Shown piece after piece: positions 9,210-31,240 of a DNA stretch of 64,000 nucleotides. The notes under the pieces were generated by a model. That model saw only the letters and a program-made list of their open reading frames with translations, was not told the origin of the DNA and searched no databases. The translations under genes were made by a program, and so were the position numbers. Origin of the DNA: Lentisphaerota bacterium (lineage in GTDB: Bacteria; Verrucomicrobiota; Lentisphaeria; Victivallales; Victivallaceae); NCBI GenBank assembly GCA_015061605.1, contig SUWH01000015.1:2693-66692 (forward strand), in the 5' to 3' direction. How positions within the stretch are numbered: the stretch's first letter is position 1; every line of letters begins with the position of its first letter.

Positions 9210-11078
9210 TCAGTCAACACCGATCGTTTTGCGATTGATTTTGTACTCTTCTTTAACGTGATGCTTGATCCATTCGTCAGTATAGGGAGAAACGCGGCGG
9301 CTGGCAGTCTTGGGGCTGACGTTGTAGATTTTTACCAGTTCCAGCATCGCTTTTTCGGTGACATCATTGGTATTGTTGTTATTGTGAGCCAATTCAAAAT
9401 CGATCAGGGCGCGCAGGTAGATCAGGCGCCAGCGCCAACTGTTTTTTGCCCATGCCGGAAGTTCGGCATCAAGTTTTTTCGCCAGTGCAAAGGCGGTCGT
9501 GGTATCGCCCCAGACCTTGCCTTTTTTGCGCCAGACCGGTTTATCTTTCAGCAATTCAAAAAGATCGCTGATTTTTTCATTGACTTTTTCGACCCAGACC
9601 AAGCCGGGGTGGTTTTCTTCGAGCAGATCGAGCAGGCGTTTGAAGTCGGGCAGGGATGTTTCCGGCACTCCGAGTTCATAATTGGCATACTCTTCAATGG
9701 TGGTTGCAATTTCGTTGGTGCCGGTGGCAAACATATCGGCATAGAGGAATTTGTTGATATCTTCAAAGATACCTTCCGAATAGAGGATGCCGCCGGAGGA
9801 AATATGAGAAACTTCACCGTAAAGCCGCGAAAAACGCTTTAAAAGCGGGGTCGCTCCGAAGCCGCCCCACGGGGCGCGGCCCCACATGCTGATTTCGGGG
9901 AAAGTGACCAGTTCGACTTTTCCCGGAAGCGGATTATTGAGCGGGTGTTTCGGGAAACTGCTGTGGCTGTCCGCCATAATGCTGTCGAGGAAATCGGCTT
10001 CACCGTTATTGATCTTTTTATAGAGAGTTTCCCATTCACCGATATTGTCATATTTGTCGAATTCCCAGGTGACCCACATGATTTTGGCATCGGGCCAGTA
10101 TTCTTTGATTACGGGGACGAGCCGTTTGGCAAGTTTGAACATACCGTTCACACCGTACGGAAAGCAGTTTTTGCAGCCGCAACCGCCCTGATCGTAAGAC
10201 CAGAACTGAACGGTTTTGACCTTGACATCTTTAAGATTTTCACAGTCAGCCCGGTATTTTTTTTCAAGATAATCCAGACCGGCTGGATTGCTGGTGCAGA
10301 TCTCCGTGCCGGAAAAACTGTGACCGGTGTCGGTCGCCCGGAGTTCTTTCGGGGAGTCGGCATAACCGAAGTTGCCGACACCGTGACAGAAATCCATGCC
10401 GAGTTCAGAGGCATAGGTGATCAGCCGTTTGCGGCGGATGAGCGCGGCAGTATGTTCCGGAGAACCGGCGATTTTTGCAGCGGAACCGAGGCCGAGTTTA
10501 AGGTAATTGTAACCGAGCAGGGCGAGGTCTTCAAGATACTCTTCCATGAATTCAACGGGGGAAACTTCATAAACGTTGTAGAAGTGGCTGGCAATGTAGA
10601 CACAGCGGAAACTCTTGGCGGGATTCCAGCTGCCGCGCCAGTTGCCGGGAGTGAAGATACCATCGGCATAATTTCCGTTACGCAGAAGTTTGCCCGCCGC
10701 ATAAAGGAATGCCGCCCCGTTGCCGCAGTCAAGCTGTAAGTTTTTTGAATTGAATGAGCCGGAAAGGCGGAACTCCTCCGGTTTGCAGCGGGAATTGCGG
10801 ACAACCTTGATCACGTAATCTTTATCGGCAGTGATATTGCGTTTTTTCAATCTGGCTTCAAAAATCCGCAATGCGTGTTTCTCCAGAGTGCCCGGAGCAA
10901 ACTCAAATTGAAAAATTCCCTGTTTCATAATATTTTCCTTTTTTACAGTGTTTGTTTTGACGATTTCTGAAGCTTTTGCTTGAGTGGAATGCGGGAACGC
11001 TGCCATTATCGCTGTTACCATGAGCAATTTGGTAATAGTGAAACTTTTTTTACGGTGATGCAAGATCAAACTCTTCAT
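9210..11078 (-). CDS. Hypothetical glycan-locus enzyme with CxCxxC motif and a degenerate pilin-like N-terminal anchor
   Basis: 622-aa ORF with AAAGGAAAA before the ATG at 11078. N-terminus KKSFTITKLLMVTAIMAAF. SYDQGGCGCKNCFPYG resembles the GYCRCKRC motif in the DUF4838-like protein at 32658. Confidence 0.7.
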   Translation of the reverse strand: MKSLILHHRKKSFTITKLLMVTAIMAAFPHSTQAKASEIVKTNTVKKENIMKQGIFQFEFAPGTLEKHALRIFEARLKKRNITADKDYVIKVVRNSRCKPEEFRLSGSFNSKNLQLDCGNGAAFLYAAGKLLRNGNYADGIFTPGNWRGSWNPAKSFRCVYIASHFYNVYEVSPVEFMEEYLEDLALLGYNYLKLGLGSAAKIAGSPEHTAALIRRKRLITYASELGMDFCHGVGNFGYADSPKELRATDTGHSFSGTEICTSNPAGLDYLEKKYRADCENLKDVKVKTVQFWSYDQGGCGCKNCFPYGVNGMFKLAKRLVPVIKEYWPDAKIMWVTWEFDKYDNIGEWETLYKKINNGEADFLDSIMADSHSSFPKHPLNNPLPGKVELVTFPEISMWGRAPWGGFGATPLLKRFSRLYGEVSHISSGGILYSEGIFEDINKFLYADMFATGTNEIATTIEEYANYELGVPETSLPDFKRLLDLLEENHPGLVWVEKVNEKISDLFELLKDKPVWRKKGKVWGDTTTAFALAKKLDAELPAWAKNSWRWRLIYLRALIDFELAHNNNNTNDVTEKAMLELVKIYNVSPKTASRRVSPYTDEWIKHHVKEEYKINRKTIGVD

Positions 11079-21653: not shown

Positions 21654-24098
21654 ATGAAAAAATTATTCGGGGTAATTTTACTTTGTTTGTCAAGTATTTT
21701 GGCATTTGCTGATGCCCGTATCGTTGATAATGGTAAAGCCGTTGCCGAAATCATCCTTGCCCGGACGCAGGACAAAAGCGTGTCAACTGCAGCAGCTGAA
21801 CTTCAAAAGTATATTCAGATGATGACCGGAGCAAAACTCCCCATTCTTTCCGAACCCAGCGGTAAAGCGGTCACCCGGATCTTTGTCGGAGAAAGCCCCG
21901 CAACCGGTAAATTGGGATTTTCGCTCAAAGATGTGAAGCATGACGGATTCCGCATCAGTGTCCGCGGCAACGATATCATCATCGCCGGTAATGACATCAA
22001 CTGGTATGGCAAATACAAGCTGCACCGCGGTGTTCTTGATGGAGTGGAAAAAAAATGGTTCAAATTTACCGGACGCAAATGGCGTTCTCCCATGTTCATG
22101 TACTGTATTGAAGAGATGGTCCGGTCCAAGCCAAAGCTGGAATTTCACCGTCAGGATGGCACAGGAACTCTCTATGGTATCTATCACTTCCTTGAACTTT
22201 TCGGATTCAGATGGTATTTCTCCTTTACCGGTGCCGACCGTGATCTGGGCAAGGTCATCCCGCAGCTCAAAAATATGACACTGAAAGATATGGAAATCAA
22301 AAGGGAACCGCTTTTCGCGCAGCGTATTTTCCCCTACTACACCTCTGACAGTGAAAATTCTCTGTGGGTAAAATCCATGGGAGTCGGTCAGGCGGAACTC
22401 TTTGCGCCCATCCATCTTACCGGACGTATGCTCGATTACCGGGAAGACCCCGAACTTGCCGGAATCGTCGGCGGTAAAGTCGATTGGACCGCGCCGCGTC
22501 TTTCCGGAGAAAAATTCCGCAGTGAATTCATGCACTACCTCGACTGTTTCAACCGCTTCTATCCGGTCCGGTTTGACTTCACCTCCTTCGGTTCTCCGGA
22601 CGGTTGGGGAAATATAGATGACCGGGATGTTGCCCGCTGGGATCGCAAACACCGCGGCGCCTACGGACGCTTCAGCGACTACTACTGGGATTTTCTGCTG
22701 GATATCAGAAAACGCTACAACAGTAAATATCCTTTCGGCTCCTCCCAGCGTAAGCACGTCTACGCCTATACCGGAACCCGCCGCATACCGGAAATTCTGG
22801 AGAAAAAAGGCGCCATGGTTCCGGATGATTTCACTGTATTCTTCTGCTATGCTTCCGACAAGATGCACCTTCCAGGCATGGATTACCGTCCTCAGTTCAG
22901 AGAGTGGCAGGCACGGATAAAATCTCCCCGCCAGCTTATCGCCTACGACTATTACTATGAGCATACCAGATACAAAGGTGAAAGACCTCCGGTCCCCTAT
23001 ATTTTCACCGGACTTCTCAAACAGGAATTTGCAGAACTTTACGGCAAATGCGATGGCTGGCTGCTGGAAGGAATGGTCGCCAACCGCACGAAAAATGGTT
23101 TTGACGGTTTCTACCGTCCTGCTATCAATTCACCCATGTTCTATCTGCGGAACCGTATGAGCTGGGATCGCAACTGTGATCCGGTAAAGGAACTTGAGGA
23201 TATGTGCCGCCGCTACTACGGTCCTGGTGCCAAAGAGATGATGGAACTTTACACCGAAGCCGAAAAGGTTTGGATGCGTCCCGTTGCCCGTGCCGTCACA
23301 ATGAACTCCGGCTACATCAAAAAGGATGACGTTCCCCGATTCTTCGCTCTGCTTGAAAAAGCAAAAGCCAAGGTCGCAAAAGACTCCATTTTCGCCCGCC
23401 GCATCGGCAAACTGGAACAGGAAATGCTGCCTTTGAAGGATGTTTTCAAGCAAATGGAAAGAAAAGGTCCTCTGGTGCGGGCAACGATATTCACTGATGA
23501 TGCTCAGCCCGAAGTGAACGGCGACCTGGAAAAACCCTTCTGGAAGTGGCGTTCCCGCAAGCCGCCCGTACGTCAGGAACTGCGGGATATGCACACAGCA
23601 AAATATCCTGAACATATCGCCACATTCGCCGATTTCCGTTACAAAGGTGATGTCCTCTATATCGCCATCGAGTGTCTGGAACCTAAAATGCAGAATCTCA
23701 AAATCGTTGCCCGGGAAGATGACAGTCAGTCGATCTGGGCCGGTGATATGCTGGAGATCGCTCTTGAGACCGTCAACGGCCGACGGCCGACGATCAATGT
23801 GGACCCTGACGGTCACGTATTCGACCGTGATCCCAATATGCCCGATGCAGCTGATCTGCCCCATTTTTACAAAGTAAAAAAATGTGCCGTCAAAAAGCTG
23901 AAAGACCGCTGGTGCGTCGAGATCGCCATTGATTTCGCTGAACTGGGCTGTACCCGTCCCAACCGCTCCACGCCTTGCGGGGTCCAGATTTCGCGACAAC
24001 GCATGGCTGGAAACAAACCGGAGTTCTACATGCTTTCCCCCACCGGCTCCCGGTTCAGTGATCACTACGAAATGATGGGCAACATATTTGCACAGTAA
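21654..24098 (+). CDS. DUF4838-like secreted glycan-active protein with C-terminal CBM9-like region
   Basis: N-terminus ARIVDNGKAVAEIILA...AAAELQKYIQMMTGAKLPI...IFVGES is characteristic of DUF4838/GH20b-like proteins. 814 aa with a signal peptide. Confidence 0.7.
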   Translation: MKKLFGVILLCLSSILAFADARIVDNGKAVAEIILARTQDKSVSTAAAELQKYIQMMTGAKLPILSEPSGKAVTRIFVGESPATGKLGFSLKDVKHDGFRISVRGNDIIIAGNDINWYGKYKLHRGVLDGVEKKWFKFTGRKWRSPMFMYCIEEMVRSKPKLEFHRQDGTGTLYGIYHFLELFGFRWYFSFTGADRDLGKVIPQLKNMTLKDMEIKREPLFAQRIFPYYTSDSENSLWVKSMGVGQAELFAPIHLTGRMLDYREDPELAGIVGGKVDWTAPRLSGEKFRSEFMHYLDCFNRFYPVRFDFTSFGSPDGWGNIDDRDVARWDRKHRGAYGRFSDYYWDFLLDIRKRYNSKYPFGSSQRKHVYAYTGTRRIPEILEKKGAMVPDDFTVFFCYASDKMHLPGMDYRPQFREWQARIKSPRQLIAYDYYYEHTRYKGERPPVPYIFTGLLKQEFAELYGKCDGWLLEGMVANRTKNGFDGFYRPAINSPMFYLRNRMSWDRNCDPVKELEDMCRRYYGPGAKEMMELYTEAEKVWMRPVARAVTMNSGYIKKDDVPRFFALLEKAKAKVAKDSIFARRIGKLEQEMLPLKDVFKQMERKGPLVRATIFTDDAQPEVNGDLEKPFWKWRSRKPPVRQELRDMHTAKYPEHIATFADFRYKGDVLYIAIECLEPKMQNLKIVAREDDSQSIWAGDMLEIALETVNGRRPTINVDPDGHVFDRDPNMPDAADLPHFYKVKKCAVKKLKDRWCVEIAIDFAELGCTRPNRSTPCGVQISRQRMAGNKPEFYMLSPTGSRFSDHYEMMGNIFAQ

Positions 24099-25886: not shown

Positions 25887-27746
25887 ATGAACGACACCCC
25901 GGTTTTCTCTTTCCCCAATGAATTGATCGCCATTCGCGGTTCAATGCTCTACGATCATTATCTGCGACGGAGTGCTGCCGCAGACAGAAAGCGTGCCCGG
26001 AAACTCGCCGGTATCAAAACTGTGAAAGATGCACAGGCGTATATCGCAGAAATCAAAGACAAACTTCGTCTCTCTTTCGGTGAAATGCCGCCGGTCCAAC
26101 CGATTTTACCCATGGTGACGGGAACTGTTGAAACGGGTAAACTGCGCATTGAAAAAATTGTTTTTCAAAGTCGTCCCGGTTTCTTCGTAACAGCACTTTT
26201 CTATCATGGCAAAAATGTCGCTGCCCCCGTCCCGGGAGTGCTTTTTCTCTGCGGCCACAACACCGAAGGCAAACATCATCCGACTTATCAGCGTATTCCC
26301 CAGAGTCTGGCACTCCGGGGAATGGGCGTTTTAGTGGTCGATCCCTATGGTCAGGGCGAAAGGCAGGAAGGGGAGCTCGAATGTACTGCGGCTCACAATG
26401 CTTTCGGTTTCCGGTTGGGGCTGCTGGGGGAATATTTGGGTGCATGGCGGGTACATGATGCGCTGACAGCTCTGGAATATCTGAAAAGCCGAACGGAAAT
26501 CGATTCCCGTCGCCTTTGTGTCACCGGATGTTCCGGCGGCGGTACTCTCACGGCATTCACCGCCGCTTTTGCCAAAGATCCGCTGATTGCCGCTCCGGTT
26601 TGTTCGATGACCCGTCACCATGCCAATCTGGAAGGGGAGATTTGTGCCGATAACGAACAGAATCCGCCCCGCTTCAGAGAGTTGGGACTGGATGAAAACG
26701 ATCTGCTTATCGCCGGTGCTCCGGCACCCCGGTTTTTCGGAGTACAGGATAATGACTTTTTCAATCCGGAGGCGACCGGTGCCATGTACCGGGAACTGAA
26801 AAAATTCTATTCTGTTTTCGGGAAAGCTGATCAGGTGCGGTTTGCTTTGGGAGAGGGAGCCCATGGATACCCGGTTTACCATCAGCAGAAAGTAGGAGAA
26901 TTTTTCTCCGAAATGACCGGAGCATCTCCCATCGGCAGCGATGATGATATCGAAATTCAGGAACAGGACGCTCTATTCTGTACTCCGGGCGGGCGGGTCT
27001 GGGATTTGGACGGGGCTCTTTCTGCCGGAGAAATACTTCAGCAGTTGTCCGCTCAAAAAATCCGGCCGTCAGTGGAACAGTTCTGCAAAATGATCATACC
27101 GGAAACACCGCGCCGGGAGCCGGAGTTCAGAACGGGATTCAAACAGTATATTGCTCCCCGCAAACTTTACGGCAGCCGTTTCCAGCTGAATACCGGACCG
27201 GGAATCACCATCACGTTAAAAGAGATCGGACCGGCACCGAATACCCGGCTTGTCTGTACAAAAGAAGTGGTGGCGGCAGTAGCACAGGATGACGGCTTGA
27301 CCGAATATCCGGAACTCTGTTCCAATGAGCAGCAGAAAGCTTTCATAATTGAACCCAGAGGAACCGGGGAATCCCGCCCCTGCCGCATGGAAAATGACCT
27401 GAATATCATTTTGCCGGGACTTTACGGTTCATGGGAACTGATGTTCGGCGGCAGTGTCGTCTCTGCCCGGAGCAAAGATATTCTTTCCGCGCTCCTGCTG
27501 TTGAAAAAACACGGAGCCGAAAAGGTCATTCTCAAAGCCTCCGGCATGGCGTGTATCCCTGCCGCGGTTGCCGCATTGTGTGCCCCGCTGGAAGTGGAAA
27601 AAGAGTTTTCCGACATTCCCATAACTATGCAGCGATTCATCGCGGATTGGAGTTTGAAAATACCGCCGTATTTTTATCCGTTCGGTCTTTTGTGCTGCGG
27701 AGATTTGGATCATCTGGGACTTACATCAGAGGTTCGTCCTGATTGA
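25887..27746 (+). CDS. Alpha/beta hydrolase (acetyl-esterase / dienelactone-hydrolase-like)
   Basis: VLFLCGHN...; GCSGGG nucleophile elbow in VTGCSGGGTLTAF. 619 aa with no signal peptide. Confidence 0.7.
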   Translation: MNDTPVFSFPNELIAIRGSMLYDHYLRRSAAADRKRARKLAGIKTVKDAQAYIAEIKDKLRLSFGEMPPVQPILPMVTGTVETGKLRIEKIVFQSRPGFFVTALFYHGKNVAAPVPGVLFLCGHNTEGKHHPTYQRIPQSLALRGMGVLVVDPYGQGERQEGELECTAAHNAFGFRLGLLGEYLGAWRVHDALTALEYLKSRTEIDSRRLCVTGCSGGGTLTAFTAAFAKDPLIAAPVCSMTRHHANLEGEICADNEQNPPRFRELGLDENDLLIAGAPAPRFFGVQDNDFFNPEATGAMYRELKKFYSVFGKADQVRFALGEGAHGYPVYHQQKVGEFFSEMTGASPIGSDDDIEIQEQDALFCTPGGRVWDLDGALSAGEILQQLSAQKIRPSVEQFCKMIIPETPRREPEFRTGFKQYIAPRKLYGSRFQLNTGPGITITLKEIGPAPNTRLVCTKEVVAAVAQDDGLTEYPELCSNEQQKAFIIEPRGTGESRPCRMENDLNIILPGLYGSWELMFGGSVVSARSKDILSALLLLKKHGAEKVILKASGMACIPAAVAALCAPLEVEKEFSDIPITMQRFIADWSLKIPPYFYPFGLLCCGDLDHLGLTSEVRPD

Positions 27747-28185
27747 AATTGAACGCAAGTTCATTTTTTATCATGTTCATGATAAGAGTCGTCTGGGTTC
27801 TGACCACCCCGGGAATGTTTCCCAGACGAATGATAAGATTATTCAATCCGGAAGTATCTTTTACGACCGCACGGATAATGTAACTTGTATTGCCCGCCAC
27901 ATCAAAGACATCCAGCACATCGGGCAATTCTGCCAGCTTGCTGCCGATTTCAATGTGGCCCGCCTTTTCGACGGTGGTAACTGAGATCAGCACATTCATA
28001 TTCAGTCCGATTTTGCCGTGAGCGATCCTGCAGGCATACCCACTGATGACCCCGGTTTCTTCCAATCGTCTCAGGCGTTTCAACGCCGCCGAAGGTACCA
28101 GATTGATACGTTGAGCAAGTTCCTTGTTGCTGATCCGTCCGTTGTTCTGCAGACAGCTTAATATTTTACGGTCAATTTCATCCAT
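27721..28185 (-). CDS. Lrp/AsnC-family transcriptional regulator
   Basis: MDEIDRKILSCLQNNGRISNKELAQRINLVPSAALKRLRRLEETGVI. The ATG at 28185 lies 7 nt after AAAGGAGA; the ORF track starts earlier, at 28236. Confidence 0.9.
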   Translation of the reverse strand: MDEIDRKILSCLQNNGRISNKELAQRINLVPSAALKRLRRLEETGVISGYACRIAHGKIGLNMNVLISVTTVEKAGHIEIGSKLAELPDVLDVFDVAGNTSYIIRAVVKDTSGLNNLIIRLGNIPGVVRTQTTLIMNMIKNELAFNFNQDEPLM

Positions 28186-28394
28186 TTTCATTCTCCTTTC
28201 AATATGTAATATAATCCGGACTCCGGATTTTTGCAATATCTATACAGAATAAAATTCTGATTTTTATGTAATTTTTTCACTTTTTATTCTCTTTTATATC
28301 GCTTTTACAGTTGTTTATTTCAAAAATTTGTTTTTTTGTTGAATATAAATTTCAAGTTGATATATTAACAGAAAAACAAATCGGAGAACTGACT

Positions 28395-30263
28395 ATGAAT
28401 TTTACTTCGCCTTATCCGGAAATAACCGGAGATACAGAGAAGCTGAGACATAACGCGGAAATCCTCACTGAACTTGCCGCCAATCGCGGAGTGGAGATCG
28501 CCGGAGTGGTGAAGTGCTGCTGCGGAGCTCCTGAAGTTGCACATGCTTTCACCGCAGGAGGTTGTCTCCAAATCGCCGACTCACGCATTCAAAATTTGCG
28601 CCGCCTCCGGCAGTGCGGGATCAATTGTCCACTATGGCTGCTGCGCATTCCGATGCCAAGTGAAGCCGAAGAAACTGTAAGGTATGCGGATTTGAGTCTC
28701 AATTCTTCCGGAGAGGTGTTGGAACTGCTTTCTCAAGCAGCGGTAAAAGCCGGCAAAATACATCAGGTCCTGCTGATGACTGATCTTGGTGACCGCCGGG
28801 AAGGTGTCCAACCCGGCGAACTGGAAAATTTATTCCGGTATGCGGAATCACTCCCCGGGATCTATCCCGCCGGGATCGGTACCAATCTGACCTGCTACGG
28901 AGGGATCATCCCGGATGAGGAAAACATGGGACTGCTGGTCGAACTTGCCCGGAAACTGGAACGGGATCTGAAGCGGAAACTGCGCTATGTGTCAGCGGGC
29001 AACAGCAGTGCTTTGAAAATGCTGCTGGAAGGCAGACTGCCGGCCGGTTTGAATCATCTCCGTTGCGGAGAATCACTTCTACTGGGCAGGGAAACCTGCA
29101 ACGGCGGGAAGATCCCCAATATGTTTTATGACGCATTCACACTTACTGCGGAAGTAATTGAAAGCACTGTAAAGCCCTCTTTCCCCGCCGGAACGATGCA
29201 GTTGAATGCATTCGGAGAAAAGCCGCAGATACCTGATTTGGGGATACGCAACCATCTGCTGCTGGGTATAGGCAGAGCGGATGTCAATTGTGACGGGATC
29301 ACTCCCCGCCGGGAAGGTATCCGTATTCTGGGGGCGAGTTCAGATCATCTTATCGCAGATGTCGAAGATTGCTCCTTGCATTTTAATGTCGGAGATACGC
29401 TGGATTTTGATTTGGAATACAGCAGTCTGCTGTCCGGAATGATTTCTCCGTATGTCAGCAAGAGGTGGCTTTCACCGGAGGAGACCCCGGATTTCAAGGG
29501 ATGGAAGATCCTCCGGACTCCTTTTTCATCAGATGAAGCTTTCAGTTCTTTTTGCCGTCTCCCGGCAGACCCGTTATTTTCAGCCTTTGCCCATCCCTGC
29601 GGCACATGTGATTCCCTTTCCTCGGTTGCGCCTGAAGTAAAAAACTGTCTGGAACAGCAAATACGTCCGCTGCTCTGGGGTGGTTCTCACCGGGTCGCAT
29701 TGGAGCTGGCGAGAGGACTTCCGTCCGGCGCGCACCGCTGCGGATGGATAATGTTTTCTGCTTACAGTGATTTTAACACCGGAGAATCCGGAGCGATCAC
29801 TCCGGAAGGCATGACCCTTTCGGCCATTTGCGGCAAAACAGTAATTTCTGAAACGCTGGAACACCCGATCCCGGAGAGGAATGTGGTTTTGATAGGAGTC
29901 CGCAGTATCGAACCACAGGAAAGATCACGCCTTCAGCATTCCGACATCCAGGTCTTTACCATGGAAGAGATCGACCGTTACTGTATATCAGAGATCATGG
30001 AACGGGCGCTGAAATATTTGAATGGGGTAAATTCTCTGGTCGTTGATTTTTCCATGAGTGTCCTTGATCCGGAATACACAACTTCGCAAGATGTTCCACC
30101 CTGCGGTCTTACCTTGCGGGAAGGTTTTTGTGCGTTGGAAATCCTCTCTGATTCCGGAAAACTTACCGGTGCAGCTCTGACCGAGATCCCCGATAACGAA
30201 ACTGCACAAAAAAATGCCGCAGCCTTGACCCGGTCTCTGCTCGGCAATAAAATTCTGCGTTGA
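28395..30263 (+). CDS. Fusion protein: alanine/ornithine-racemase-fold PLP enzyme (N) + degenerate arginase/agmatinase-fold domain (C)
   Basis: The ATG at 28395 lies 7 nt after GGAGA. The N-terminal half (IAGVVKCCCGAPEV with the PLP Lys; GTNLTCYGG; GESLLLG) looks like ornithine-racemase/YhfX-type enzymes. The C-terminal half aligns by eye to arginase motifs but with substitutions: GGSHR (GGDHS), SAYSDFNT (DAHxDxNT), DFSMSVLDP (SxDxDxxDP). Confidence 0.75.
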   Translation: MNFTSPYPEITGDTEKLRHNAEILTELAANRGVEIAGVVKCCCGAPEVAHAFTAGGCLQIADSRIQNLRRLRQCGINCPLWLLRIPMPSEAEETVRYADLSLNSSGEVLELLSQAAVKAGKIHQVLLMTDLGDRREGVQPGELENLFRYAESLPGIYPAGIGTNLTCYGGIIPDEENMGLLVELARKLERDLKRKLRYVSAGNSSALKMLLEGRLPAGLNHLRCGESLLLGRETCNGGKIPNMFYDAFTLTAEVIESTVKPSFPAGTMQLNAFGEKPQIPDLGIRNHLLLGIGRADVNCDGITPRREGIRILGASSDHLIADVEDCSLHFNVGDTLDFDLEYSSLLSGMISPYVSKRWLSPEETPDFKGWKILRTPFSSDEAFSSFCRLPADPLFSAFAHPCGTCDSLSSVAPEVKNCLEQQIRPLLWGGSHRVALELARGLPSGAHRCGWIMFSAYSDFNTGESGAITPEGMTLSAICGKTVISETLEHPIPERNVVLIGVRSIEPQERSRLQHSDIQVFTMEEIDRYCISEIMERALKYLNGVNSLVVDFSMSVLDPEYTTSQDVPPCGLTLREGFCALEILSDSGKLTGAALTEIPDNETAQKNAAALTRSLLGNKILR

Positions 30264-30298
30264 AAATAACGTTTATCACCAATTTAAGGAAGTAAAAC

Positions 30299-31240
30299 AT
30301 GAAAAACATAACTGGATTTATTCTTGGATTTCTGGCCACGGCAGCGTGGGGAAGTTTTTATATCGCAGGACGCTGGCTCTTCGGGGAAGAAGGCGAAATA
30401 AATTCCTGGCTGTTCAATTTTCTGCGCTTCGGGATGGCGACGGCGGCTCTTTCTCCGCTGCTGCTGTTTCCCGGCAACCGTCAACTGATAAAAAAAGCGT
30501 TGCATTCAGACTGGAAAAGTTTTCTGCTGATCTCATTGGTCGGAATAGTTATGGAAAGCATCTTGATATTCGGCTCGTTGAATTATACCACTGCTGCCCG
30601 GAGTTCGTTGATGGCAAACTGTTCTCCCATCGCCACCGTGATCCTGTCATATCTGCTGCTGAAACAGAAAACTCCCGGTCTGGGGATTCTGGGAATGATC
30701 ATTGGATTCAGCGGCATTGTGCTGGCCGGTTTTGCTCCCGGCGGAGACATTTATGCCGATACCGGCTTGTATTCTCTGCTCGGAGACGGGATGGCGCTCG
30801 GGTCTGGCTTCTGCTGGGCGTTTTTCACCGTTTACGGAGCAAATGTTTCCCAAAAATACGGAGGACCGGTTTGCATGTTCATCAGTTTTCTTTTTGGAAC
30901 GCTTCTGATGGTGCCGCTTTTGTTTTTCACTGTCAGCATTGCTGACTGGCAGGAATTCAGACCGCAATTATGGGCGGGAACGATTTACACCGGAGTAATC
31001 ACTCTGGCGTGGGCAAACGCCTGCTGGTACGCCGCGCTGCGCTATTTGAAACCCAATGTTCTCGGTGCATTCGGCTACCTTTCTGCCGCCATTACATTCA
31101 CCCTCTCGCTGATCGTGCTGAAAGAAAAATTTTCTGTCCTGTTTATTGTTTCCATCGTCTTGATCCTGTTTGGAATGGCCCTGCTGATGAGCAATCCGGC
31201 AAAAGGCGGATCTGCTTCAGAATCCCAAAAATGTCCATAA
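30299..31240 (+). CDS. DMT-superfamily (EamA-like) transporter
   Basis: 313 aa, about 10 hydrophobic segments, two EamA-like halves, AAGGAAG RBS. Confidence 0.85.
   Translation: MKNITGFILGFLATAAWGSFYIAGRWLFGEEGEINSWLFNFLRFGMATAALSPLLLFPGNRQLIKKALHSDWKSFLLISLVGIVMESILIFGSLNYTTAARSSLMANCSPIATVILSYLLLKQKTPGLGILGMIIGFSGIVLAGFAPGGDIYADTGLYSLLGDGMALGSGFCWAFFTVYGANVSQKYGGPVCMFISFLFGTLLMVPLLFFTVSIADWQEFRPQLWAGTIYTGVITLAWANACWYAALRYLKPNVLGAFGYLSAAITFTLSLIVLKEKFSVLFIVSIVLILFGMALLMSNPAKGGSASESQKCP

Follow-up and report, generated by a model that had tools for sequence, protein, structure and literature searches.

The 64,000-nucleotide stretch of DNA analyzed here (the window), from a Lentisphaerota bacterium of the family Victivallaceae (contig SUWH01000015.1 of assembly GCA_015061605.1), carries a gene for a 622-residue-long protein, P0004. 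In this protein, a racemase domain dependent on pyridoxal 5'-phosphate (PLP) is joined to a domain with the arginase fold in which most of the manganese (Mn) ligands of arginases are replaced. The gene lies between a divergent regulator gene and a transporter gene. The features of the locus, in window positions, are as follows.

28395..30263, forward strand: fusion gene encoding the 622-residue protein P0004, with the start codon ATG at 28395.
28395..29465, forward strand: Orr/OrnR-type fold-III PLP racemase domain, residues 1–357 (NCBIfam racem_Orr, Pfam PF01168).
29478..30263, forward strand: arginase-fold domain predicted to lack the binuclear Mn site, residues about 362–622 and the stop codon (Pfam PF00491, alignment, AlphaFold2 and Foldseek).
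27721..28185, reverse strand: gene of an Lrp/AsnC-family regulator, 154 residues from ATG 28185, with domains of the HTH_24/HTH_AsnC type and AsnC_trans_reg, divergent from the fusion gene.
28186..28394, no strand assigned: divergent intergenic (regulatory) region of 209 base pairs, with promoter-like hexamers on both strands and an inverted repeat.
30299..31240, forward strand: gene of an EamA/DMT-superfamily transporter, 313 residues, with two EamA repeats.

The profiles of Pfam and NCBIfam and the comparison of a predicted structure with solved ones agree that a racemase half and an arginase half are joined in the gene at 28395..30263, as had been read from the sequence in a preliminary description of the locus. 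The two-part division made there stands, with the lengths of the parts corrected from about 370 and 250 residues to about 357 and 260. The open frame around the gene spans 28311..30263 on the forward strand; TTG 28311 was rejected as the start codon, since a conserved GGAGA-type motif precedes ATG 28395, which is also where the N-termini of the orthologues start. ATG 28395 is also the start in orthologues that are 86% identical.

The C-terminal half of P0004 matches the Pfam family Arginase (PF00491) at residues 406–610 with an E-value of 1e-23, and the NCBIfam model rocF_arginase (TIGR01229) at residues 409–619 with 103.3 bits, which is under the equivalog cut-off of 227.6. The AlphaFold2 model of P0004, calculated with 50 family members as input, has a mean predicted local distance difference test score (pLDDT) of 90.4; its predicted template modeling score of 0.66 leaves the relative orientation of the two domains uncertain. 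In a Foldseek search, the C-terminal part resembles the arginase of Bacillus subtilis (6nfp) with a template modeling (TM) score of 0.78 on the target over about 290 columns. The N-terminal beta-alpha unit of the domain is about 30 residues shorter than in the intact fusions.

The positions of the metal ligands were located by HMMER alignment to the solved arginases of Thermus thermophilus (2ef4) and B. subtilis (6nfp), are given in the numbering of human ARG1, and were verified at the level of codons. Two of the six Mn ligands are kept (His101 as H432 and Asp128 as D459) and four are replaced (Asp124 by S455, His126 by Y457, Asp232 by S553, and Asp234 by S555), which gives the pattern H, S, Y, D, S, S. 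This HSYDSS pattern is kept in every orthologue with at least 72% identity in the C-terminal domain. The proton shuttle His141 is replaced by E471. Among the residues of substrate recognition, Asn130 (N461), Glu186 (E509), and Glu277 (E597) are kept, Asp183 is replaced by E506, Ser137 by alanine, and Asn139 by threonine. The residues of the subunit interface, Arg255 and Glu256, are kept as R575 and E576. The changes noted earlier by eye (GGDHS to GGSHR, DAHxD to SAYSD, and SxDxDxxDP to DFSMSVLDP, with about four of six ligands replaced) are reproduced exactly by the alignment. The profile and structure comparisons thus uphold the arginase fold and bear out the loss of the ligands. From the established chemistry of arginases, no binuclear Mn cluster is expected, because both bridging aspartates, D124 and D232, are lost. 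Judged by these positions, the C-terminal domain is a pseudo-arginase in the canonical sense, and P0004 would have lost the hydrolase activity.

It is very unlikely that the domain has remained catalytic by means of an altered site that is not binuclear, such as that of a mononuclear or metal-free hydrolase of a guanidino or amidino compound. Such a role could account for the retention of the equivalents of His101, Asp128, Glu186, and Glu277, for the conservation of the S/Y/S/S replacements themselves among orthologues, and for the purifying selection on the domain. However, the loss of the bridging ligands D124 and D232 affects both metal sites, His141 is lost as well, and clades of related fusions differ widely at these positions, which argues against a shared new active site. 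Furthermore, known arginase-fold proteins that lack the ligands have been described as metal-free pseudoenzymes (PMC11271267).

The N-terminal half of P0004 matches the Pfam family Ala_racemase_N (PF01168) at residues 13–229 with an E-value of 7e-29, and residues 7–357 cover the full length of the NCBIfam model racem_Orr (NF040742) with 385.7 bits. In the AlphaFold2 model, this part resembles alanine racemases, with TM scores of 0.72–0.76 in Foldseek. In a sequence search of the Protein Data Bank, no close relative of the racemase half with a solved structure was found; the best matches were alanine racemases and YhfX, with E-values of about 0.02. Racemases of the OrnR type employ a lysine and a cysteine as the acid-base pair (Lys36 and Cys164 in OrnR of Salmonella), unlike the lysine and tyrosine of alanine racemase (Phillips et al., PMC13397332). 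The C164A mutant of Salmonella OrnR is inactive, each of the 945 family members examined has the cysteine, usually with a tyrosine after it, and two arginines bind PLP (PMC13397332). The corresponding residues of P0004 are Lys40 (28512–28514), Arg135, Cys167-Tyr168 (28893–28898), Asn203, and Arg223, all with checked codons. Lys40, Arg135, Cys167, and Arg223 are present in 84–85 of 85 fusions and in all 70 stand-alone Orr proteins, and the latter are 45–50% identical to the N-terminal half of P0004. The racemase half is apparently catalytically active, as judged from these residues. The preliminary proposal of a racemase of basic amino acids can be sharpened to the Orr/OrnR type, on the basis of the invariant Cys/Lys pair and of the orr operon slot that relatives of the gene occupy.

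The two halves of P0004 have evolved at different rates. In comparison with the 86%-identical orthologues, the ratio of non-synonymous to synonymous substitution rates (dN/dS) is 0.057 in the racemase half and 0.18 in the arginase-like half, and identity to the closest orthologue is 92% and 79%, respectively. The C-terminal domain is more relaxed than the racemase half, yet clearly under purifying selection, which agrees with its earlier interpretation as a pseudoenzyme with an arginase fold and no binuclear site. The approximately threefold faster evolution of the C-terminal domain could be taken as a sign of a decaying, functionless relic. By contrast, its dN/dS is far below 1, its fold is complete and confidently predicted, and it has been retained across phyla at 25–30% identity with a conserved interface, so that this explanation, already disfavored, is barely credible.

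The positions of the C-terminal domain that are invariant throughout the family are R575, E576, E582, G617, and I620, and those conserved in at least 90% of members are P425, G429, G450, N496, G501, R503, E509, T522, D527, G530, E533, G571, and A580. A model of three copies of residues 362–622 reaches an ipSAE score of 0.93, compared to 0.00 for the best of three controls, with a pLDDT of 90 for the partner, and three runs share at least 95% of their contacts. Of the 18 conserved positions, nine, including R575 and E576, belong to the predicted interface, against an expectation of 2.1 (hypergeometric p = 3.5e-5). In mammalian arginase, Arg255 and Glu256 form an inter-subunit salt bridge required for trimerization. 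Because the family-conserved residues are enriched in the predicted interface, it appears to be the contact between subunits, rather than the metal site, that constrains the domain. The C-terminal domain therefore probably forms trimers, in line with the oligomerization module proposed in the preliminary description. OrnR is a dimer or tetramer with cooperative kinetics that are sigmoid in the D-to-L direction (PMC13397332). Full-length P0004 is expected to assemble into a hexamer of three racemase dimers, because a racemase with these properties is joined to a domain that would trimerize.

A second function suggested earlier, the binding of a ligand, is left open by the retained positions N130, D/E183, E186, and E277. 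It is conceivable, but tentative, that the arginase-derived domain is mainly an allosteric sensor, which would bind L-arginine or L-ornithine in the former substrate pocket, leave them unhydrolyzed, and tune the racemase, a role that would be compatible with that of a scaffold. The four recognition positions and those of His101 and Asp128 are kept in the clade of the window and in its Lentisphaerota relatives, while the metal ligands are lost, and the sigmoid kinetics of the characterized OrnR indicate a type of enzyme amenable to cooperative control (PMC13397332). However, S137, N139, and H141 vary within the clade of the window, and other clades lose even N130, D183, and E277 yet keep the residues of the interface.

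The fusion is not the one-off that it seemed from the window; it belongs to a large family, in which an origin from orr and rocF is apparent and a few members have an intact arginase domain. A sequence search identified dozens of clusters at 90% identity with the PF01168+PF00491 architecture, 585–703 residues in length and 33–86% identical to P0004. A scan of one genome per species returned 43 fusion loci; the first row of its alignment contained only the C-terminal domain, so stand-alone Orr proteins failed confirmation. The carriers include Victivallaceae, other Victivallales and Lentisphaeria, Victivallis vadensis (a metagenome-assembled genome, MAG), Eubacteriales, Spirochaetes, delta-proteobacteria, Acholeplasmataceae, Rhodobacterales, and many cultured Hyphomicrobiales (Mesorhizobium, Aminobacter, Labrys, and Borborobacter). 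Within the genus of the window, the fusion is an accessory gene, because it is carried by two of the 24 other genomes searched. A homologue search restricted to the C-terminal domain yielded only the seven closest relatives and gives no basis for the size of the family. A search of a representative library with a profile of the C-terminal domain, the matches of which mix fusions, fragments, and true arginases, provides a lower bound: its top 150 contain at least 15 new fusion clusters at 50% identity and three representatives already seen. Databases label members of the family as "arginase family protein", "alanine racemase", or "predicted amino acid racemase/arginase family enzyme".

Of 77 distinct full-length fusions, 68 retain three or fewer of the six Mn ligands; zero to six ligands are retained in 1, 28, 31, 8, 2, 4, and 3 of them, respectively, and the replacements differ from clade to clade. 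The metagenomic fusion P0132, with a full-length identity to P0004 of 36%, has all six ligands and every arginine-binding residue, with N130, D183, E186, R255, E256, and E277 present, and scores 233.4 bits against the RocF model, above its cut-off of 227.6. P0016, also metagenomic, has five ligands and reaches 234.8 bits, likewise above the cut-off. These two proteins, 656–657 residues long, are candidates for truly bifunctional arginase/ornithine racemases. Near the clade of the window, the ligands form a graded series: P0132 (six), P0016 (five), P0027/31 (four), P0014/15 (three), the group of the window (two), and P0017-24 (one). The clade of P0037, P0038, and P0043 (670 residues; locus L030 of a delta-proteobacterium, in an ornithine operon) keeps six ligands and has lost N130, D183, and E277; its members may be ureohydrolases for a substrate other than arginine. 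Among the best matches of the C-terminal profile are also P0125-P0128, P0135, and P0145, which are 195–379 residues long, retain 0–3 ligands, and have no racemase part. These proteins may stem from genes truncated on short contigs, or may be pseudo-arginases that exist on their own.

Neighboring genes were clustered over the 43 loci and representatives annotated, which results in three main contexts. In the first, found in Spirochaetes, Eubacteriales, delta-proteobacteria, Rhodobacterales, and Acholeplasmataceae, the fusion follows ord-ortA-ortB-oraS-oraE and a GlmL-like Or-4 gene, and thus stands exactly where orr is located in the anaerobic ornithine-degradation operon. At locus L025, Ord (536 bits), OrtA (128), OrtB (842), OraE (1373), and Or-4 (685) all exceed the respective equivalog cut-offs; the small gene at the place of oraS has no NCBIfam match at an E-value of 1e-10 or less and was assigned from its position and size. 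Locus L023 (8686-10669 of CAYYRM010000015.1, an uncultured Eubacteriales MAG) shows the unfused state: the ord-ortAB-oraSE-Or4 operon is closed by a separate Orr of 353 residues (468.7 bits), with a true RocF arginase of 299 residues (320 bits) immediately after it. Locus L032 resembles L023, with one gene between the two. The family seems to have begun as a fusion of orr and rocF, of arginase and ornithine racemase, because the unfused pair exists at L023 and the arginase domains of P0132 and P0016 still score above the cut-off for RocF. In a FastTree phylogeny of the racemase domain, which has long branches, at least three changes between the fused and stand-alone states are needed. A single origin of the fusion is not established by this tree, and no number of fusion or fission events is claimed.

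In the second context, that of Hyphomicrobiales, an FAD oxidoreductase of the DAO type lies upstream of the fusion, with aminotransferases and an ATP-binding cassette (ABC) transporter around it, which suggests a catabolic route that combines a racemase with a D-amino-acid dehydrogenase. At L039:7455-10594 and at further Mesorhizobium loci (L035, L038, L042, L044, and L048), a degenerate fusion lies directly downstream of the DAO-family oxidoreductase, with a gap of 2 base pairs. A separate arginase-family gene with an intact site lies nearby at L048 and L024.

The third context is that of Lentisphaerota (the window, L018, L019, L020, L021, and L022), in which an orthologous EamA gene lies 3' of the fusion. 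It is directly downstream at all five loci with downstream DNA (the window, L018, L020, L021, and L022), across families of the order, and an orthologous Lrp gene adjoins the fusion in the window, L018, L019, and L021. In other clades, the transporter partners are of the NhaC type, SBP_bac_3 (an amino-acid-binding protein), or ABC transporters. A Victivallales MAG of 8.6 Mb (G031, OY787460.1; loci L010 and L012) carries a 661-residue fusion with EamA downstream and, outside any ornithine operon, a separate 422-residue Orr-like gene with 43% identity.

The substrate of the racemase half is most likely ornithine, as would follow from its similarity to Orr and from the gene contexts. It is doubtful that the racemase half acts instead on lysine, arginine, 2,4-diaminobutyrate, or a broad range of substrates, so that the unit of Victivallales would be unrelated to ornithine. 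Such a specificity would fit the racem_Orr score below the cut-off, the branching of the clade of the window away from the operon-embedded fusions, the ornithine-fermentation genes not found in the genome of the window, the overlapping specificities of racemases in the OrnR superfamily (PMC13397332), and the Mesorhizobium fusions, which neighbor a DAO-type oxidoreductase and aminotransferases and not an ornithine operon. By contrast, over the full length of the racemase domain, identity to bona fide Orr proteins is 45–50%, the operon-embedded fusions have the same residues at all 66 racemase positions that are invariant in the family, the fusion partner is an arginase, the product of which is ornithine, and OrnR of Salmonella has no activity toward lysine (PMC13397332).

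P0004 is, on balance, probably an active Orr/OrnR-type racemase, likely for ornithine, with a RocF-derived pseudo-arginase that serves as an oligomerization module, possibly one that senses arginine or ornithine, and its gene would be co-transcribed with that of a transporter. According to the proposed course of events, orr and rocF were neighbors at the end of an anaerobic ornithine-degradation operon, where the arginase would have fed L-ornithine to the racemase. Their fusion would have created a bifunctional enzyme, from which the binuclear Mn site was then lost in most lineages, this lineage of Victivallaceae included. The domain may have been kept since it would still fold and trimerize through the conserved arginase subunit interface, and would thereby join the racemase dimers in a higher oligomer; in addition, L-arginine or L-ornithine may have remained effectors that it binds. 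In Victivallales, the gene would have left the fermentation operon and become part of a two-gene unit with EamA, which would move a substrate or product across the membrane, and the divergent Lrp/AsnC regulator would control the unit in response to an amino acid.

Several observations weigh against this reading. The equivalents of His101 and Asp128 remain, so the C-terminal domain may still bind some metal. The racem_Orr score of P0004, 385.7 bits, is below the curated NCBIfam cut-off of 480; this cut-off is strict, in that the operon-embedded stand-alone Orr of L023 (468.7 bits) and the operon-embedded fusion of L025 (449.6 bits) are also below it. The clade of the window is separate from the operon-embedded fusions in the tree, and its specificity could have shifted. 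In the calibration of the mark used for the trimer model, 20 of 30 proteins solved as pairs and one of 23 solved as single chains attained it; this calibration was made with two copies, while the model has three. The prediction also resembles the solved arginase trimers, and its pass may reflect this likeness or a reproduction of those structures. In addition, structural requirements contribute to the conservation of R255/E256 and of the GGLTxRE motif in all ureohydrolases. Enzyme activity, metal content, and oligomeric state are all predictions, and the genome of the window is incomplete, so enzymes that consume D-ornithine are to be regarded as not found rather than absent.

The flanking genes are those recognized in the preliminary description, with a divergent Lrp/AsnC gene upstream and an EamA gene downstream, and Pfam domains were found in both products. 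The regulator contains both domains of its class, a helix-turn-helix domain (PF13404, E-value 5e-17) and the AsnC_trans_reg or RAM effector domain (PF01037, E-value 4e-14); it scores 82.8 bits against the NCBIfam Lrp model, under the equivalog cut-off. An alternative upstream start of its gene is possible at TTG 28236. The transporter matches PF00892 in two stretches with an E-value of 3e-37, and thus has the two tandem repeats characteristic of its class. It reaches 59.8 bits against TIGR00950 (carboxylate/amino acid/amine transporter), the cut-off of which is 230, and no equivalog-level assignment is made. The stop codon of the fusion gene is separated by 35 base pairs from the EamA gene on the same strand, and the two genes are probably co-transcribed. 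The genes around the three-gene set encode glycoside hydrolases and prepilin-type N-methylation proteins. Because these are unrelated to amino-acid metabolism, the Lrp, fusion, and EamA genes form a discrete unit.

The intergenic region 28186..28394 has a mean column identity of 92% with two other species of the genus, while the synonymous divergence of the adjacent gene is 0.63–0.81. A 15-nucleotide inverted repeat (28326-28340 and 28367-28381) brackets promoter-like hexamers at 28339-28366. The conservation of the region is consistent with an operator and promoter for the Lrp regulator, and the inverted repeat may be its operator. Scans for terminators and promoters did not rise above background and were left aside in judging the operon structure, and a search against Rfam found no match within the 64-kb window.

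The genome that contains the window is 2.56 Mb in size and 88.7% complete. No other arginase-family gene was found in it, and neither was an OraE or OrtB equivalog in searches with NF040743 and NF040741. It has a single gene with the fold of ornithine/diaminopimelate decarboxylases, which does not adjoin the fusion, and an ordinary alanine racemase-like gene elsewhere. With no OraE or OrtB equivalog and one decarboxylase-fold gene, neither known sink of D-ornithine, fermentation or DOKDC-type decarboxylation, was found in this genome. Two roles of the unit are plausible: the production of a D-amino acid, such as D-ornithine, for export, or the import of the D-form, which would then be racemized to the L-form. 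Neither direction of transport by EamA is favored by the present data. The unit for D-amino-acid production and export proposed in the preliminary description is thus borne out in the pairing with EamA, whereas export is one of two directions. A far-reaching extension, that the pseudo-arginase is a hexamer-forming module sensing arginine or ornithine, which gates the racemase for the export or salvage of D-ornithine through EamA and so provides regulated D-ornithine exchange in gut Victivallales, is unlikely. If true, the family would record the repeated conversion of the second active site of a bifunctional enzyme into an allosteric or scaffold domain.

P0004 shares fold III, the Lys/Cys pair in the GTNL(T/S)C(Y/F) motif, and the PLP-binding arginines with Orr of Acetoanaerobium sticklandii and OrnR of Salmonella (STM2358), which belong to NF040742. 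Unlike these enzymes, it has an additional 260-residue arginase-derived C-terminal domain and scores under the curated cut-off, and its gene is outside a fermentation operon, without an adjacent D-ornithine/lysine decarboxylase and with EamA and Lrp as partners. With RocF (TIGR01229; 6nfp and 2ef4), P0004 has in common the fold, the collinear motifs, the interface residues of the R255/E256 type, and N130, E186, and E277; a trimer is predicted for its C-terminal domain. It differs in the replacement of four of six Mn ligands and of His141 and in the low RocF score, and hydrolysis of arginine is not expected. A precedent is MetCb of metformin hydrolase, a metal-free subunit with the arginase fold that is kept as an assembly partner of the active enzyme (PMC11271267). 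P0004 resembles MetCb in the arginase fold, the lost metal coordination, and the presumed role in assembly with an active enzyme; however, its pseudo-arginase is covalently fused to a PLP racemase of unrelated fold and has no active arginase paralogue as a partner. The fusions P0132 and P0016, which have the architecture of P0004, and the orr-rocF pair of L023 appear to represent its ancestral state; the two fusions retain five to six of six ligands and pass the RocF cut-off, compared to two of six in P0004.

Each component, the OrnR-type racemase, the pseudo-arginase, Lrp, and EamA, is already known. The fused combination, its apparent origin from orr and rocF, and the repeated loss of the Mn site with retention of the interface are new. 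No description of a racemase-arginase fusion was found in the PMC and bioRxiv literature searched, and the 2025 paper on OrnR mentions neither an arginase nor the fusion (PMC13397332). Extant sequences seem to preserve the stages from neighboring orr and rocF genes through a bifunctional fusion to the repeated loss of one site with the interface kept. Counting the members of the family as arginases would lead to wrong metabolic reconstructions for gut Victivallales, spirochaetes, and rhizobia. The locus of the window is a candidate unit for the transport and racemization of D-ornithine, or of basic D-amino acids, in a gut lineage without an earlier description of one. The family bears on the assembly and regulation of cooperative OrnR-type racemases, and cultured carriers, including several Mesorhizobium isolates and Aminobacter aganoensis DSM 7051, make its biochemistry testable.

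Elsewhere in the window, two open reading frames, 21654-24098 on the forward strand (814 residues) and 9210-11078 on the reverse strand (622 residues), have no Pfam match at an E-value of 1e-5 or less. Both are located among genes of glycoside hydrolases and associated families (DUF4838, GH20, GH2-like, and CBM9) and genes of prepilin-type N-methylation proteins.

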